Virus record (IMG/VR): IMGVR_UViG_3300041964_000076
Span: 1,498 to 65,497 of that record
Source of the DNA: a virus
Length of the DNA stretch: 64,000 bases
Reading direction: 5' to 3' (one strand)
Shown here: positions 32,546-42,389 of the stretch, piece after piece
Numbering within the stretch: position 1 is the first letter of the stretch
How the letters are laid out: every line of letters begins with the position of its first letter
Notes under the pieces: generated by a model
Database searches by the model: none
What the model was told of the DNA's origin: nothing
The model's input: the letters and a program-made list of their open reading frames with translations, nothing else
Translations under genes and position numbers: made by a program

Positions 32546-32971
32546 ATGATTGAAGTTGAGCAAGCGCAAGTGGTAGTAGTGCGATCGCTGTTGGATCTGA
32601 ACCTGTTCGTTGCAGACTATGTGATGGGCTGGGACGATCGGTATTTTTTTGAGGAAAGACCAGGTATTCCGCATTACTGGGACCCTGACACGAAAACTTG
32701 CTACACATATAATCAATGGTCTCCGTCAGAAAGCATTGAAGACGCTTGGCAGGTTGTTGAAAAGTTAGAACACCTTACACCCGTTATTGAGGCGTTAACT
32801 CAGACAGAGCAACAATCAGCTAAATGGCGTTGTCTGTTTGCAAATATAAGCGAACTTGGACTGAACCACGGGTGGCATCTATCTGACAGTTCTACCGCAC
32901 CGATCGCCATCTGCCTCGCTGCCCTCAAAACCGTAGGCATAGAAGTGCAACTGGAGCTAAATGATGCCTGA
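32546..32971 (+). CDS. Phage ABA sandwich domain-like protein
   Basis: LNLFVADYVMGW...WSPSESIEDAWQVVEKL...APIAICLAALK. Confidence 0.7.
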   Translation: MIEVEQAQVVVVRSLLDLNLFVADYVMGWDDRYFFEERPGIPHYWDPDTKTCYTYNQWSPSESIEDAWQVVEKLEHLTPVIEALTQTEQQSAKWRCLFANISELGLNHGWHLSDSSTAPIAICLAALKTVGIEVQLELNDA

Positions 32972-33605
32972 ACCACGATTCCCACTGCCATACGAGCAAA
33001 TCAATAAACTTTCGTTTATTGTGAAGCAGCATCGGCAAAAGGCTGTTGAGGAGCTGGGTCAAACGAATTTCAGACTGGAACAATTACGTGGCGATATAAA
33101 TGCGATCGCCCAAAAAACCCGCGATAGGGTGGGTAGTCTGAAAGCGGTGGCAATCATAGCGATCGCTCTGTCCATCATCAATCTCGGTCTAATCATCTTC
33201 TGGAAGCGTTAAATGTCCAACATCACCCCAGAACACAGCCATAACGCTCGACCACTTGATGAGCAAATGGCAGCGCTGACCGATCGCGTGGATGGCGATA
33301 TGGCAGCAGTCTTTGAGCAGTTGGACGAACAGAGCAAAATGATTGTGGCACTCAAGGCTAAGATTCAAAACCTGGACGATCGCCGGGGCTGGGTGGATGA
33401 GATTGCCCTAATTCTCAACTGGGCAGAACGCAACCATAGATGGGTGTGGGGAGTTGTAGCGGCGGGGGCAGTAACAACGCTCTTGCTCAACATCTCGCAG
33501 GATGGCAAAGAAAAGCTAGTGGAACGATTGACCACAGTAGAAGCGATTACAGCACTGGCGATCGTTGCAACGGCTGGCGCAAAAACGGCATTAGATAAGA
33601 AATAG
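32961..33605 (+). CDS. Two coiled-coil, C-terminally membrane-anchored proteins (holin-like lysis candidates)
   Basis: ORFs 32961-33212 and 33213-33605 with TM segments upstream of the endolysin. Confidence 0.45.
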
Positions 33606-34515: not shown

Positions 34516-35136
34516 ATGTCTGACAAAATTCTCTCTGTCCCTTTCATGGTTCAAAACGATAACGATCTTTGGAGTGGTGTTCACGGCAGCGTTCAATGCT
34601 GCCCTACTGCTAACGCCATGCTAGCGGCGACCCTGGACAAGGATATGATACCGTTAGCGAAGAAGAACGGCTTTAGAGAGCCTGAGAGTTACTACAAGAG
34701 TAAGTTTCAACCATTGGGCTATAGTGCCGCAGACAGAGGCAACCACGACGCTCACACCAGAGTTTTAGAGTCAGCCTTCGGCATCAAATCACAATGGCGT
34801 ACTGACATCACTAGTAAAGACATCGTGCGATCGCTTGATGCTGACATCCCTATAGTGGTCGGCTTTGAGTATAAATATTCTGGGCATATATGCATTATTA
34901 CTGGCTACTACAGCAGCGAGGGTGGTGGTTTGTATGTCCATGACCCTTATGGACTCAGGGCAGGGTCGGACAACTATTACCACTACATCAACCCTGGTTA
35001 CGGTGATCAATCAGGCAAGCACGATCGCTACAGTTGGGGCTTGCTGAATCACGTTCTGTTTGAGCGTGGCACACCCAATAGAGGCGGCTGGGGTCGATGG
35101 GTTACGAGCGTAGCAGGGAAGCCCACAGGCTTGTAG
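34516..35136 (+). CDS. C39-like peptidase, probable endolysin
   Basis: QCCPTANAML (Cys), GHICIITGY (His), VHDPYG (Asp) papain-like triad. Confidence 0.78.
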   Translation: MSDKILSVPFMVQNDNDLWSGVHGSVQCCPTANAMLAATLDKDMIPLAKKNGFREPESYYKSKFQPLGYSAADRGNHDAHTRVLESAFGIKSQWRTDITSKDIVRSLDADIPIVVGFEYKYSGHICIITGYYSSEGGGLYVHDPYGLRAGSDNYYHYINPGYGDQSGKHDRYSWGLLNHVLFERGTPNRGGWGRWVTSVAGKPTGL

Positions 35137-35420
35137 AAATGGATCGCAACCCACTACCATCGCCCAAAGAAATCGCACTGAATGAAGTGGCAGGGTTGCC
35201 ACCTGAGTTGCAGGCGCACAGAGAAGCGATCGCCGCGATCGTTGAGAAGGTTGTACGCACAAGAGACTGGCAGACTAACGACATCCTTCAGCAGCATTTA
35301 GGTAATGTCAATTTTGCTGCCATTCAGTTGCGCGAGACGATTGAGAAGATGCTGCGATCGTAGGGGTTCAACCCGCCAGCGAAACCCGATCGCGCCCATC
35401 TTTTTGGTAAAATGGAATAT

Positions 35421-35481: not shown

Positions 35482-36190
35482 ATGACTAGGATATACAGAA
35501 AACCGACTGAATCGATCGGTGAAGTTTTTGGCAGCTAACAGTTTTAGGCATCGCAGGCAGAGATCACGCAGGGTTTGCGATCGCGGCTTGCCTTTGTGAA
35601 TGCGGTAAGAGGCACCAGACAAGGCTTAACAGCTTGAGAACGAATAAAGCTTTATCTTGCGGGTGTCTAGCAAGACGAAATCCATCTGCTAGTGACAAGA
35701 TTGTGACTCCGAATCATGGTTTTTCAGTAAAAGATCATTCGAGTCTGGAATATTTGACTTACATAAGCTGGAAAGCGCTTAGGCACAGATGTCAAAGATA
35801 GGCATTCAAATACAGAAGCATTATGGCTCTAGAGGCATTGAAGTCTGATTCCAGAGTGGAATAGCTTTCCTCATTTTTAGCTGACATGGGATTGCGCCCC
35901 AAGCAAAGCGCATCTGGAATCGATCGTGCTGATGTGAACGGAAATTACGAGCCTAGCAACTGCGACTGGGGCTACAGCGAAAGAGCAGGCGCCAGAACAA
36001 GCGGAACACGCGATGGCTCACCCTTTCAGGCAGAACGCGTTTGTCCTTAGCGCCGTGGGCTGAAGAATAGGTTTTCCAAGAGAAGTTCTTAAAGATAGGC
36101 TGGGTCGATTGGGCTGGAGTGTTGAAAGAGCTTTGACAGAGCCAGTCATGAAACAAAACAGGAAACGCATAACGCCCCCTAGTTTTACTC
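35482..36190 (+). CDS. HNH homing endonuclease (frameshifted, end approximate)
   Basis: CLCECGK...LSCGCL; SFLADMGLRP...IDRADVNGNYEPSNC; GWSVERALTEP. Confidence 0.75.
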
Positions 36191-37985
36191 TGTTGGGGAA
36201 CTACCACTTGGTTCTTGCCCTGCCTTTTTGCCTGCTCATAGCCGCATCAGCAGGCAGCCATCAGTTTCAGCTAGTGTCCTGCCACTCGTTGGATACATTG
36301 CAACCCCGATCGATGCGTCACCTGCCTAAGCATGGAGCCTCCGTAAGCCAGGTTGATTGCTGAGATTGCCTGTCGCAGTGCCTCAGCTTTGGCGATCGCG
36401 CTTGCCTCTGTGCAATCAACCAAAAGCACCACAATTTCATCGCCCCCTTTGCGTACTGGAACGTCCCCGTTACGGCAGTTATCTAGAAGAACACGCCCGA
36501 TATTCTGAAGCACAAAATCGCCAGCGGCATCGGATACTTCCTTGTTATACTGCCCGAAGCCGTCAGCATCAACGAATAAAAGCGCTAGCTGATAGCTATT
36601 GCGATCAGCTTTAGCGACTTCACGCGGGAACGTTTCGGCTAGATAAATATTGTTGAAAAGTCCAGTCAGATGATCACGAACTAGCATTTCCTGAGCTGCT
36701 TTGCGATCGCTCAGTGCGCTCAACGCCTGCCCTAACTGTTGCCCCACAATCTCAGCAATCTCGATTTCGACATTGGTCAAGGGACGATCGCGCCTCAAGT
36801 GCAACACGCCTAGAGTCTGTGTCTCGCGTCCGTAGAGAACAGAGGCACGCATAGATGGGAACCGCTCACAGGTTTGTGTAGATGTTCGCAGACCATTTCA
36901 GTTTCTTGATCCTCGCAGTAATGCACTTTCGCTTCTTTGAGCGATCGGCATTCATTCGGCATGAATCCCGCTTTGCTGCCTGCATCACTGCCCCAACTAA
37001 AGCGCCGCTCTGCGTACGATCGTGAGTTATCAATCAGAAAAGTTCGCCTGCCAGATAGGGGAAGAGTTTGCGACCCGCAACCCGCACAACATCGCCTGCC
37101 TCTTGGTAGGAGTCGCAAAGGTTGAGGCGTACTGATAACTCTGAGATCAAGTTGAGGTTCAAAACCATCAACGAGAGTCGGGTTTCTTTCTCGCGTAACT
37201 TTTCGTTGGCAGCAATCAATTTGCCTTGGGCGATTTGTTGATCGGTCACATCCAGACTAAAACCGCCGATGCATAACTCGTTGGTGTGTGGATCTGTAAA
37301 CCGAAACTTGCGGGTGTAATATTCTCGCGGCTGCCCTGTGGCATCTGGCACTACCTCAATAAATTCTGCCTCGCCGTTTTCCGCCACTAGGCGATCGTTC
37401 TGCAAGATTCTCGCTGCCTGTTCCTCATCTTTGAGAAAGTTGGTGTCATTCAGCCCAATCACTGACGATGCGGGTCGTGCGATCGCACGTTCACACGCCG
37501 GTTGAGCCAGATCATGGTCGAGTCACTAGCCCGCTTGCAGTAGATGGGGTAGGGCGATGAATCAATGAATAGATCACGAATGAGCTGATGCTGCTCAAGC
37601 CCTGCCTGATTCGCCTGAGATGATTGAACGAGCGCGATCGCCTGTGCTGCGAAGGGGGCAACCAGAGTGCTGCTACTAGAGAGACGATCGCGGTTACTGC
37701 CTTAGCTCGCTACAGACAGGCTGTACAGGGGCAAGAAGACGGTAATGACCTCGGCAATGTGCGAGATGCCACAGCAGACGATAAAGGCGCAAAACAGCCC
37801 AATGATTTGATAGAAGCGAAGGGGAACGCCTGCGAGTGAAACAGTTGCCGTGAGTAGTACAGGAGTGAGAGCGGGATAGCGAAGTAGGCGATCGCAATCA
37901 GCACGTCACTGCCGACTAACGACCAAAGTAGATAGGGATTCCAGTTGAAGCAATAACCGTGAGGCACCCAGGAGAAATGATCCAT
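36180..37985 (-). CDS. Diguanylate cyclase-like sensor: ethylene-binding TM domain, PAS, GAF, GGDEF (frames joined)
   Basis: PHGYCFNW...SDVLIAIAYFAIP; FIVCCGISH (37759-37776); KAVTAIVS; PAS/PAC LDVTDQQ; GAF; DHLTGLFN, RNGD I-site, GGDEI. Confidence 0.85.
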
Positions 37986-38723
37986 TAGCAACCAGCCGTG
38001 GCAGCACCGTACAAATGCCCTTGCACTAACAGTTGTAAGTTTGGAAAATGCCTTGCCAGAGCGATCGCCCTCGCTTCAATTGCTCCCGATTCCAGATGCT
38101 CTAGCACAATCGGTATGTCACGCCGATGAGCGATCGCCATTGCCCCAAACACAACGCATTCGCGCCAATGGTCGCGGCCATCAGTCGCACGATCGAGCCG
38201 TCAACTTCAAGAAATCAGGCTCGATCGCCAAGATCGCTGGAATGTTGGCATAACCTACGCCAAAGTCGTCAATGCCGATTGGTAAGCGTAGCTCACGCAG
38301 GGCACTCAAAACCTGCGTCGAAGGTAACATTAGTGCCTCTGTTTCGGTCACTTCACAGTATAAAAGCCGTGGATTGATGCCGCTCTTGTTGAGTTGCTCC
38401 GTCATGAAAGACGGAAACTGCAAGTCATTCAAACTTTGCCCACTCAGGTTGATTGCGTGCGGTATAGACGAGTGCTGCAAACGCTCCAGAGTGCCAACTA
38501 CAGCAGCGCGATCGATCGCCTTTAGCTGCTCAGGAGTTACGTCATTGATGAATCTTGCCGCCGGGATTATCTCGCCAGACGGCTCCCTCAGTCTGACTAA
38601 AACCTCAAACACGTAAGGGATTTCAACCCCAATTTTGAAAATGGGCTGACAGTGAAAGATCAGACTACCAGAGTCGATCGCCTGATCAATGCGCGATCGC
38701 CATTGCATGGATGTGTTCGGCAC
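37985..38723 (-). CDS. Stand-alone EAL c-di-GMP phosphodiesterase (C-terminus across frameshifts)
   Basis: QPI, EVLVR, INLS, EVTE, IDDFGVGY, K-DG, VLEHLE, VQGHLY; its TAA overlaps the DGC ATG. Confidence 0.9.
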
Positions 38724-38829
38724 AGTGACTAGCGTTCAGGATAAGTCCATCTTAGTCCCTGTGATGGAAGGGGCTGATGTTATGGGGCGATCGACTTCCT
38801 TTCTGTCTCACTTTATTTCTGCTGAAACC

Positions 38830-39245: not shown

Positions 39246-39455
39246 ATGGAGCATAACACGATGCCTAACACCAGAAAAACCGATCGCGACGAAGTGAAGC
39301 GTAACGCAGGCTTAAGCCTTACTGGGAAGCGAATTGACCAATTAGACAGTGATGCTAAGAAATACGGCTACAAATCGCGTGCGGCATTGCTAGAAGCATT
39401 CTTTGAGCAGCAGTACCCCGCATTCCTCTATCAGTTGATGCTCAACAAGGATTGA
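39246..39455 (+). CDS. Ribbon-helix-helix (CopG-like) regulator
   Basis: LSLT...IDQLDSDAKKYGYKSRAALLE. Confidence 0.6.
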   Translation: MEHNTMPNTRKTDRDEVKRNAGLSLTGKRIDQLDSDAKKYGYKSRAALLEAFFEQQYPAFLYQLMLNKD

Positions 39456-40121
39456 AAGATTGAAGGGGCGATCGCCCTTCTCACAAATCAAACTGTCCAA
39501 ACGTTGCACACTGCCTAGAATAGAAGCAGTGGGGTGTAGCCATTGGCACAATTGTTTGGTGATAACGTCCAAAATGGAAACTCCTAAACCCGAAAAGAAA
39601 GAGCAGTGCTTAGAGGACTCCTTGGCAGACGAAAAGCAGAAAGAGTTGCTTCTGCGTTCGGGACAGTTTTTATTAGTCACTGGAGCGCCGAATATCGCGG
39701 CGAGATCCCTGCCACGCCTGGAGTCGTGCATAACTTATTTGCATGTCCAATCAAACCAGCAGCAGCCAAAATCCTGTTGGCAGAAGGATTTAAGCCTATT
39801 GGAGGCGCATTACCAACCCACACGATTAAGTGCAATACGGCGCTTCTTCGTGACTCGTACAATCCTCGTGGTCTCTTCGATCTCTTTTTTGATCTCTCGG
39901 ACTTTCCGCCGAATGATGGACTTTGGATCACGATCGAAACGTGCAAAAGATTGAAAAGCGACTGTTTACCTGCACTGAAAAAGCGTTGCTGATTCGGTGC
40001 AGATCTGAAAACGAGTTCCGTGGTGCTGTGATAACGAGACGATCGACATTGCTTGGCTGGATGATGGCAGCCGTTGCTTGGCACTGACGATCGCAGAGTA
40101 TCGCAAAAAGGTCGGCATCCA

Positions 40122-40577
40122 ATGAAGCAAACCGCAGGCTTCACCTTGATAGAGCAGTTGTCTGTGATCCTCATCATCACAATTTTGGCAGCGATCGCTC
40201 TACCTGCATTGTTCAATCAAGTCCGTAAAGCGCAGTCAAAACAGGCGGATGCCGACATTTCAGCAATGAAGACAGAAATCATTGAATGGTATCAGAAGAA
40301 CGATCGCTTCCCACATGATGTGCAACCCAATGTCGCTCCAGAAAACAACAGCGTACCCAGTTTTAAGGTGCAACCAGATACGCCTAACGATAGCCCCTAT
40401 GACTACGATCACCACTGCTTGCAAAAGCCAGAGGATGATTTTAAGACACGGTTTGTACGGGTCGTGTGGTTTGGCTGGGACAAGAAGCGGCAACACAACC
40501 ACGAGAACACGACAATTAAAGATGTTGGGGATGATGTTGTGATTACTGTGTCGGAATCTGAACAGTGCCCTCCGTGA
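40122..40577 (+). CDS. Type IV pilin/pseudopilin (class III signal peptide)
   Basis: MKQTAG|FTLIEQLSVILIITILAAIALP: PilD cleavage site, E5, hydrophobic helix; two C-terminal Cys. Confidence 0.9.
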   Translation: MKQTAGFTLIEQLSVILIITILAAIALPALFNQVRKAQSKQADADISAMKTEIIEWYQKNDRFPHDVQPNVAPENNSVPSFKVQPDTPNDSPYDYDHHCLQKPEDDFKTRFVRVVWFGWDKKRQHNHENTTIKDVGDDVVITVSESEQCPP

Positions 40578-41073
40578 TTGAAGGCTAGAATTGAGGAAGT
40601 ACAAGCATTCCATCACAGGGTTCTAGCGTTTACAGCTTAGAAATTGGAGCGACAACCGCCCGAAGACGATGGCATCAAAATTCATTCCAGGGATGCCAGT
40701 GCGTCCTTTGAATCCTTTCAAGATTCCGCCTTGGTTCGGTTGGTATAACGATCAGTGGTGTTTTTACATCTCTACTGAAGCGCAAGCGCCTGACAGAATT
40801 GCTATACGCCCAAGCATCTTTTTCAAAGATCAGATAGTTATTCACTTGCAAGTCTGCCGCTACGCCCAAGGAGTCTTCCAAAACTTCTTTGCTTGTTGGC
40901 AGTGGGAAGAAGACTTTGAACTGGATAACGATTTGGAAGACAATCAGCAAGCCCTCAGTACTAGCAAGTCCTCAGTATCCGCATTTCTACCACCCTCAAA
41001 ACTCAGGTAATCTCTGCCTGTGTACTCTCTACCTCTAAAGACATAGTAGAGGCATCAGCTTGAGGGGCATGGT

Positions 41074-41199
41074 ATGAAAGGATTTTTGAGTCTGGTGTTG
41101 GTCGGAGCGATGATGCTGCAAGCCCGTGCAGGTGCCCCAGGTCGTCGTATTGGGGGTGGCACCAGGATGCAGGAGGTTAGTCATGTTGACCAGTATTGA
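41074..41199 (+). CDS. 41-aa putative secreted peptide
   Basis: MKGFLSLVLVGAMMLQARA signal-like segment followed by GAPGRRIGGGTR; below the ORF-track cutoff. Confidence 0.5.
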   Translation: MKGFLSLVLVGAMMLQARAGAPGRRIGGGTRMQEVSHVDQY

Positions 41200-41361
41200 T
41201 TATGTAGCACTCGACCCAGCATTGAGTCCGATCAGCATCTATTAGTTAGGCATCAACGGGGTAGTAGCAAAGGCGATCGACGATGCAACGCCATACCCGA
41301 CCGCAGTGGAAGTGCGAACCGTGTTAGAGAATGTTTGAGGGGCATGGATTGTGGTTGGAGC

Positions 41362-41934
41362 TTAACGGCGCTTTGGTGGCTTGAAGAAGTCTTTCTTTTT
41401 AATCTTCACCATGCGCCCGTCTGGATGGTGCCACACGATGCCTTCAATCTCTCGATCGTTCAAGTATTCTTTAAGCCCTTCAAAATCTGTAGGTACAGCT
41501 TCTTTGATGATCACGCCGTCATGTGGCACTAGCACATGGCTAACAAACTTTTCAGGGTTGCCTTGCACCTTGGGTCCGCACAGTTCATAAGTACCGTTCT
41601 TGAGCGGTTGACTGAAAGCATCAACACCGCGATCGTATGCCTCTCTAAACCATTGATCCTCTTTTCCATCGCCAACGGGTAGCCATCCTGGATGATGCCC
41701 TGTCACTGGATCAGGTTCTTGAGCAGGTTCAAAACCTTCAGGTGGTGTCTTACCTGCTTTTGCGTCGTACCGCTTATACAGTTTACCGTCTCGCATCATG
41801 CAACAAGTGCCATCAAACTTGCGAGTAGCAACGCCTTCGCCTGCCTGTACCCATTCACTGCCTTCTACGACTTCGTTGCAAACTAGGCGATCGCCGTCAT
41901 AGTTACGCTGAAACAAAGAAATGATTTTTTTCAT
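41362..41934 (-). CDS. RNA ligase, DUF5565/RLIG1-like nucleotidyltransferase
   Basis: ATRKFDGT (motif I KxDG), TYELCGP, IEGIVW, MVKIKKKDF; own RBS AGGAG before ATG 41934. Confidence 0.75.
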   Translation of the reverse strand: MKKIISLFQRNYDGDRLVCNEVVEGSEWVQAGEGVATRKFDGTCCMMRDGKLYKRYDAKAGKTPPEGFEPAQEPDPVTGHHPGWLPVGDGKEDQWFREAYDRGVDAFSQPLKNGTYELCGPKVQGNPEKFVSHVLVPHDGVIIKEAVPTDFEGLKEYLNDREIEGIVWHHPDGRMVKIKKKDFFKPPKRR

Positions 41935-41944
41935 AATTCTCCTA

Positions 41945-42363
41945 CCTTTTAGAAACACGTTTGACCGTCCTGGCTTTGCGTTTGCGTGCCGGACGCTTAG
42001 AGACTTTTTTGCGGGTATCAACGCCGATCGCAGCCTCTTCACAAACCCTGCCTGATTCCGATTTCCTAACTCTGGGTTCTTAGCATTCCATACCCAATTT
42101 TGTGGGGCGTGCGCCTCTTTGTGATGCTTGAGGCAGAGGGGGAAGCAGTCGATTAAGGGGCGTTCACTACCTGCAATGCTTACCCACTTCCCACCGTCCC
42201 AGACACCGTATCTCACATGATGCACTTGTCTAGCCTTGCATCGGCACAACGTACACTTGCCACCCGTCGCCTGAAATGTGGCAGTGCGTATTGAGTGCCA
42301 ATTAGGGGCGTAACGATGGGGGAAGGCTTGTTTGTGCAAGGCGGTGCGATCGCTGCAACTCAT
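41945..42363 (-). CDS. HNH endonuclease (CxxC...HH...CxxxH)
   Basis: KCTLC...QVHHVRY...PLCLKHHKEAH. Confidence 0.75.
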
Positions 42364-42389
42364 TCAACGTTAACGCAAGCCAACTTGGC

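Follow-up and report, generated by a model that had tools for sequence, protein, structure and literature searches.

The 64,000-nucleotide stretch analysed here (the window) comprises positions 1,498 to 65,497 of the IMG/VR virus record IMGVR_UViG_3300041964_000076 and contains, on its minus strand, two adjacent genes predicted to act on cyclic diguanosine monophosphate (c-di-GMP). The first is a stand-alone EAL gene and the second encodes a sensor protein with the domain order ETR1_N-PAS-GAF-GGDEF. They meet in a stop/start overlap: CATTA on the plus strand reads TAATG on the minus strand, where TAA closes the EAL fragment and ATG opens the ETR1_N fragment, exactly as an earlier note on this DNA had stated (the coordinates of the features are collected in Table 1). 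The same note had described the genes as a coupled EAL and GGDEF pair. The pairing is borne out by related contigs, in which it appears as a conserved accessory unit, but in the present record both genes are broken by 12 insertions or deletions (indels), such that neither protein can be made.

The domains were identified by Pfam on fragments of the open reading frames (ORFs). EAL was found in 38181-38723 (E-value 7.5e-27; 94.6 bits versus a gathering cut-off of 31.3), although a single frame covers only positions 3-176 of the 236 positions of the profile. ETR1_N was found in the first fragment of the sensor gene, 37710-37985 (32 bits versus a cut-off of 27), and also in the intact homologue P0014; PAS_4 was found in 37034-37462 and GGDEF in 36271-36852 (6.4e-24; 85 bits versus a cut-off of 23.8), the six-frame match of the latter containing two internal stops.

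Neither gene is a continuous ORF in the record. The EAL ORF stops at 38181-38183, seven codons beyond FLK in the KxD motif. The motifs EVL, N, EVTE, DDFG and K share one frame (38181-38723), E and QG are found in a second (37985-38152), and the 10-residue stretch between the two fragments is read from the third frame, as revealed by tblastn and translation. The claim that the EAL domain keeps all of its catalytic motifs is therefore correct for the frame-corrected gene and for the intact homologue P0001, but in the record itself the motifs are split over frames, with E and QG outside the main ORF. Two one-base deletions account for the damage: each shifts the frame by -1, and metagenome contigs add the missing base at 38205 and 38176. 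The sensor-GGDEF gene has 10 frame switches, its pieces falling into alternating frames in tblastn, and its ATG-initiated ORF comprises 91 codons, with 54 native residues; seven deletions and three insertions were counted here versus the two deletions in the EAL gene. The indels were called against intact homologues of 92-95% DNA identity. The EAL breaks were located by DNA alignment to L003, a metagenome contig, and those of the sensor-GGDEF gene by alignment to the 599-codon gene of a second contig (L004:7758-9557), to which the window is 91.7% identical at the DNA level with exactly ten one-base indels. Two other explanations of the broken frames were rejected: programmed frameshifting, because there are 12 shifts in both directions with no shared slippery contexts, and an alternative genetic code, because the breaks are frame changes and not stop codons.

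Intact versions of the cassette occur in related contigs. A search of a large protein collection with a 180-residue EAL fragment revealed an intact EAL protein of 241 amino acids, P0001, with 95% identity. It is encoded on L003, a 1.1-kb contig from a biocrust metagenome in which the intact EAL gene is followed by an identical TAATG and the start of the sensor gene. The 24.8-kb contig L004 (present a second time as L005) shares synteny with the window and has the same gene order, consisting of a pilin-like gene, EAL, the 599-codon ETR1_N-PAS-GAF-GGDEF gene (product P0014), a C39_2 peptidase gene and an acyltransferase gene. Its EAL protein, P0004, is more distant. In L004 and L005 a gene for a 215-residue HNH-like protein (P0015) separates EAL from the sensor-GGDEF gene; the HNH-like gene seems able to change its place in the cassette. 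The contig L089 contains the C-terminus of an EAL protein (ending QGW..Y), an ATGA overlap and a 613-residue ETR1_N-GAF-GGDEF protein that is 47% identical to the GGDEF fragment of the window. In L006, a Stenomitos contig with a prophage-like region, the EAL gene overlaps by 13 nucleotides (nt) the gene of a PAS-GGDEF protein with a different N-terminus. In L007, L008 and L090 the EAL gene occurs alone beside lysis-type genes, in Mu-like or other phage contexts. To judge from these contigs, EAL has the wider distribution as a phage accessory gene, the overlapping sensor-GGDEF partner being present in a subset only.

The cassette lies between core modules of the phage genome, is syntenic in L004 and L005 and occurs in phage-like contexts in L006, L007 and L090. 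These arrangements identify it as a conserved accessory unit of the moron type, found on divergent phage or prophage contigs of Leptolyngbya-like cyanobacteria. Stop/start overlaps are a common feature of operons and the one seen here is not statistically special, yet it is conserved (TAATG in L003, ATGA in L089, 13 nt in L006). The pilin-like gene (L004:5016-5474) adjoins EAL in L004 and L005 as it does in the window, where the gene belongs to the same weak family, and this may mean that the block as a whole has a function related to pili. The similarity to L004 is uneven along the cassette. The 5' part of the EAL gene (38413-38781) has 76% DNA identity, with 58% protein identity over the 180-residue fragment and identical first 25 residues, unlike the sensor-GGDEF gene (36203-37966), with 92% DNA identity. 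Such a mosaic suggests that the cassette has recombined internally. At the DNA level the region had no match in plasmid and phage collections, and scans of viral contigs with window fragments and P0014 as queries returned distant EAL proteins only and no close relatives. With P0014, scans of genome and metagenome contigs gave only generic GGDEF matches of 30-43% and no cellular donor; in the large protein search its best full-length relative was 29% identical and no close cellular relative was found.

In the frame-corrected window and in P0001, the catalytic and metal-binding residues of EAL are all present (E of EVL with R, N, E of EVTE, DD, K of KVD, E and Q). Aligned to solved EAL domains, the phage EAL family conserves ExLxR, N, ExTE, DD, KxDGS, LEHxES and QG(W/H). 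The intact EAL family is therefore likely, on sequence grounds, to have phosphodiesterase activity. For the GGDEF domain, alignment to solved GGDEF domains and to relatives showed that P0014 keeps the equivalents of PleD D327, N335, D344, R366, E370/E371, K442 and R446, among which D327, N335, D344 and E370 serve as ligands of metal and guanine and K442 and R446 as ligands of phosphate. The RxxD I-site is kept as RNGD, and the description of the domain as partly non-canonical with an RxxD I-site agrees with what was found (GGDEI, the DADGFGQYNK stretch, RNGD). The equivalent of K332, which in PleD is the transition-state stabiliser (PMC12943098), is Gly in P0014, in its nearest cousin P0017 and in the window, and the equivalent of D336 is Lys in P0014 and P0017. 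The equivalent of F330 is also Gly, and the last Phe of the GGDEF signature is Ile, such that the signature reads GGDEI in the window and P0014; in P0017 it is HGEEL. The motifs in the DxDxFK region read DADGFGQYNK and DVDDFGAFNK. Because of the Gly and Lys replacements and the GGDEI and HGEEL signatures, cyclase activity across the GGDEF subfamily appears doubtful.

The partner of the intact EAL protein might nevertheless be a signal-activated diguanylate cyclase, in which case a constitutive phosphodiesterase would be set against an ethylene-, PAS- or GAF-gated cyclase in a rheostat. The complete set of other PleD equivalents in P0014, its intact RxxD and the conservative nature of the Phe-to-Ile change speak for such a cyclase. 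However, K332 and D336 are replaced in both P0014 and P0017, and the HGEEL of P0017 implies that cyclase chemistry is not kept across the subfamily. We consider the rheostat possible, at somewhat less than an even chance. The odds of a regulatory or nucleotide-binding role of the GGDEF domain, analogous to that of the degenerate GGDEF of CC_3396, would be no lower than those of a true make-and-break rheostat, given the altered K332 and D336 positions and signature together with the retained I-site, and the option of a degenerate binding partner, which the earlier note had also offered, probably gains weight for the intact relatives from the loss of K332 and from the HGEEL cousin. The frame-corrected ETR1_N domain contains CGISH, the Cys-x3-His pair of putative copper ligands in helix 2 of ETR1-type ethylene-binding domains. 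A complex prediction for EAL and the GGDEF domain gave a score of 0.01, which is evidence neither for nor against binding.

In the proposed model, the cassette is naturally intact, under strong purifying selection, and would serve as an accessory operon of siphovirus-like phages that infect Leptolyngbya-type soil-crust cyanobacteria. The EAL phosphodiesterase would lower the c-di-GMP level of the host. Its sensor partner, composed of the ETR1_N membrane domain, PAS, GAF and the divergent GGDEF, would be made in fixed proportion to it by way of the stop/start overlap, and would either synthesize c-di-GMP under sensor control or act as a regulatory subunit that binds c-di-GMP or GTP, the second being at least as likely. 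Solely from the syntenic pilin-like gene and from what is generally known of c-di-GMP in cyanobacteria, the cassette would probably act on the host through type IV pilus motility or aggregation. A more specific proposal, to which we give low odds, is that in biocrust cyanophages the ETR1-type sensor with its altered GGDEF controls or buffers the stand-alone EAL in trans, in which way the infecting phage would match type IV pilus motility or aggregation of its host to a gas or redox signal.

The 12 indels are private to the record and most likely arose as errors of consensus or assembly in a region where several strains differ, a reading to which we assign a probability of roughly 0.55. All of them are exactly one base long. 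After frame correction both genes are free of stop codons, and the ratio of nonsynonymous to synonymous rates (dN/dS) is 0.044 for the sensor-GGDEF gene (synonymous rate, dS, 0.38; 22 nonsynonymous versus 124 synonymous differences) and 0.030 for the EAL gene (dS 0.49). Long neutral decay that collected 12 indels is thus unlikely, since it would be expected to leave many nonsynonymous and nonsense changes. Logan contigs from four biocrust metagenome runs of two studies have the intact state at 12/12 sites. These contigs are strongly fragmented over the cassette region, and those with at least 98% identity mostly fall between the sites; a site is bridged only by X1 (36284-36393, one mismatch), which is intact there. 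In the flanks aligned to L004 (window 32964-33604, 35139-35305 and 39445-42383) only compensated, in-frame or intergenic indels were found, and in the rest of the window the long ORFs are unbroken. The damaged block of about 2.5 kb (about 35.7-38.2 kb) includes the HNH-like gene and extends across gene limits and from one strand to the other. The record also has, elsewhere, some 8 kb poor in ORFs with a low-G, poly-C part (described below), which suggests that the record as a whole deserves less trust.

Alternatively, the indels may be real, the EAL, sensor-GGDEF and HNH-like genes having been freshly inactivated in an accessory block that decays out of selection. The damage is indeed limited to dispensable accessory genes, with structural and replication genes intact, and accessory genes are commonly lost: EAL occurs without the sensor-GGDEF gene in L007, L008 and L090, the arrangement in L004 differs, and the module is fluid. 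In addition, a fragment is annotated as a 169-residue gene product in public protein sets (P0016), which establishes that the deposited sequence has this form. Substitutions normally far outnumber indels, and 12 or more indels should have been accompanied by dozens of nonsynonymous changes. The uniform one-base length, the zero nonsense substitutions and the dN/dS of 0.03-0.04 do not fit this history. Moreover, the indels were found in no independent contig, and a 99%-identical contig is intact at one site. We regard real inactivation as rather unlikely.

Several points weigh against the combined picture of a functional cassette interrupted by errors in the record. The identical strain is present in no indexed public run, the best word share being 0.26-0.34; with word shares of 0.34 and 0.32 the structural-gene region scores about as well as the cassette, with 0.26 and 0.25, which indicates that the source strain is not among the indexed runs. 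The error origin is therefore an inference. Homopolymer runs of at least two bases hold only 6 of the 12 indels and a clear long-read signature is missing, whereas clustered one-base errors would be unusual if the record is a short-read assembly. No RNA run was found among the indexed runs, the functions of EAL and GGDEF are predictions, and the link to the pilus comes from synteny only.

That the window as recorded encodes a working coupled EAL/GGDEF switch that resets host biofilm or motility in lysogeny is refuted by the broken sequence, although domains, motifs and overlap are present and the pair is kept in relatives: only 175 native residues are read from the EAL ORF, so that the last third of the barrel is missing along with E and QG, the second ORF yields 54, the GGDEF domain lacks the K332 equivalent and no integrase was found; if the indels are errors, the proposal merges with the model of the intact cassette.

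Table 1. Features of the c-di-GMP cassette and its surroundings (window coordinates unless a contig is named)
Feature	Position	Strand	Remarks
Stand-alone EAL gene	37985..38723	-	spans 38708/38723 down to 37985; 241 codons in intact relatives; 95% amino acid identity to intact P0001
EAL ORF, N-terminal	38181-38723	-	175 native N-terminal residues and a 7-residue out-of-frame tail
EAL ORF, C-terminal	37985-38152	-	C-terminal 55 residues, other frame
Two one-base deletions in EAL	after 38206, after 38177 (38177..38206)	-	DNA alignment to L003; 30 nt apart
TAATG, EAL stop overlapping sensor-GGDEF start	37983..37987	-	from the sequence; identical in L003
ETR1_N-PAS-GAF-GGDEF gene	36200..37985	-	37985 down to about 36200; 11 frame segments; intact relative P0014 has 599 codons
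ETR1_N domain (approximate)	37640-37985	-	
PAS domain (approximate)	37280-37615	-	
GAF domain (approximate)	36710-37130	-	
GGDEF domain (approximate)	36200-36680	-	
Ten one-base indels in sensor-GGDEF	36235..37818	-	pairwise alignment to L004; deletions (7): 37818, 37656, 37499, 37040, 36834, 36316, 36235; insertions (3): 37705, 36267, 36254
Terminator-like hairpin followed by a T run	36159..36181	-	consensus scan; just 3' of the expected sensor-GGDEF stop
HNH-like (homing-endonuclease-type) gene, convergent	35634..36170	+	tblastn with P0015, 32% identity, two frames, internal stops
Pilin-like gene, intact (G/FTLIE N-terminus)	40122..40577	+	weak Pfam match, N_methyl, 5.7e-4
Peptidase_C39_2-like gene, intact	34516..35136	+	Pfam 1.7e-11; other side of the cassette
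EAL with lysis-type neighbours (C39_2/C70-like peptidase or GH19), no GGDEF partner	L007:9478-10723; L008:1963-3208; L090:48-1939		cyanobacterial prophage-like contigs

The genes around the cassette differ in their state of preservation. Three-frame translation of the HNH-like gene showed that it is split across three frames with in-frame stops. The only indel of the pilin-like gene relative to L004 is an in-frame one of 3 nt. The peptidase gene on the other side has a possible lysis function, and the Peptidase_C39_2 family also adjoins EAL in L004, L007 and L008. Terminator-like sites in the region are not more numerous than expected by chance; only the position of the hairpin listed in Table 1 is suggestive.

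The record comprises 107.5 kb, is classed as linear and has a CheckV completeness of 91%. The window encodes core phage proteins, namely a large terminase, a tape measure protein and a Dda-like helicase, so that the record is a phage, as had been assumed; further products are an HNH-RNA ligase fusion, an O-acetyltransferase and a C39-like peptidase. The fusion is a single 333-residue ORF (41362-42363, minus strand), in which an HNH-endonuclease-like N-terminal part is joined to a C-terminal RLIG1/PHROG RNA-ligase domain (3.8e-79). There are 139 copies of HIP1, the cyanobacterial octamer GCGATCGC, along the entire phage record, where 1.5 would be expected, and the EAL relatives from the protein search carry the names of Leptolyngbya and Stenomitos assemblies. 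The record is a cyanobacterial phage from desert soil crusts. No tRNA genes were found in the whole record, nor was a tyrosine integrase, and only a partial match to a resolvase domain was obtained, outside the window at genome 74287-74580. The suggestion that the pair acts during lysogeny consequently has no basis here.

The ORF-poor region mentioned above extends over about 8 kb (genome ~95-103 kb) and includes, outside the window, a 3.2-kb stretch (genome C1:100021-103220, corresponding to L095:6022-9221). On the plus strand C makes up 42% of this stretch and G about 2%, and there are long poly-C runs. Either the sequence is an artefact here, or the stretch is non-coding DNA with a very unusual strand asymmetry. 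Pfam gave no match on ORF fragments in the ORF-poor part between 96.8 and 99.9 kb of the genome.

For practical purposes the record calls for caution: the two genes cannot be translated as deposited, and cloning and annotation are better started from the intact P0001 and P0014 types.

Among known systems, the EAL protein most resembles the stand-alone EAL proteins of the E. coli PdeH (YhjH) type, with which it shares a single domain of about 240 residues, the lack of a sensor domain and the conserved ExLxR, N, ExxE, DD, KxD, E and QG. It differs in being phage-borne, in its position beside lysis genes and a pilin-like gene, in an identity to solved EAL domains of at most about 30%, and in being broken in the record. 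The sensor protein shares with SynEtr1 and AzoEtr1 the three-helix N-terminal ETR1_N domain and the Cys-x3-His pair (CGISH). Ethylene-receptor-type sensors have been characterised in Synechocystis and Azospirillum, where they are tied to surface and biofilm behaviour (PMC6682694, PMC11819568). In contrast to these, the gene studied here is carried by a phage, the output domain is GGDEF rather than a histidine kinase, and identity to the nearest full-length protein of cellular origin is no more than 29%. The combination of a non-canonical GGDEF with an active-looking EAL recalls Caulobacter CC_3396/PdeA; in CC_3396, nucleotide binding to GGDEF can control EAL (summarised in PMC12943098). In the phage, however, the domains reside on separate polypeptides, EAL is encoded first, and the two are joined by the stop/start overlap only.

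Phage-carried c-di-GMP enzymes have so far mostly been homology annotations, and a conserved phosphodiesterase/sensor pair in soil-crust cyanophages would offer a concrete, testable case of a virus that rewires a second-messenger pathway of its host. Integrative and conjugative elements of the SXT/R391 family carry diguanylate cyclases as cargo. Virus-encoded genes for a mucR-like diguanylate cyclase and a yhjH-like phosphodiesterase have been described in sargassum viromes (PMC11295528), and phage G encodes a probable DgcQ (PMC12484599). The cassette resembles the SXT/R391 and sargassum genes in that it brings c-di-GMP turnover onto mobile elements or viruses. Those are single, homology-annotated genes, whereas the phage lineage described here has a recurrent, coupled pair of a phosphodiesterase and a sensor-GGDEF protein. 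What is new is this recurrent overlapping pair, in a phage lineage, of a stand-alone EAL and an ethylene-receptor-type sensor with GGDEF output.

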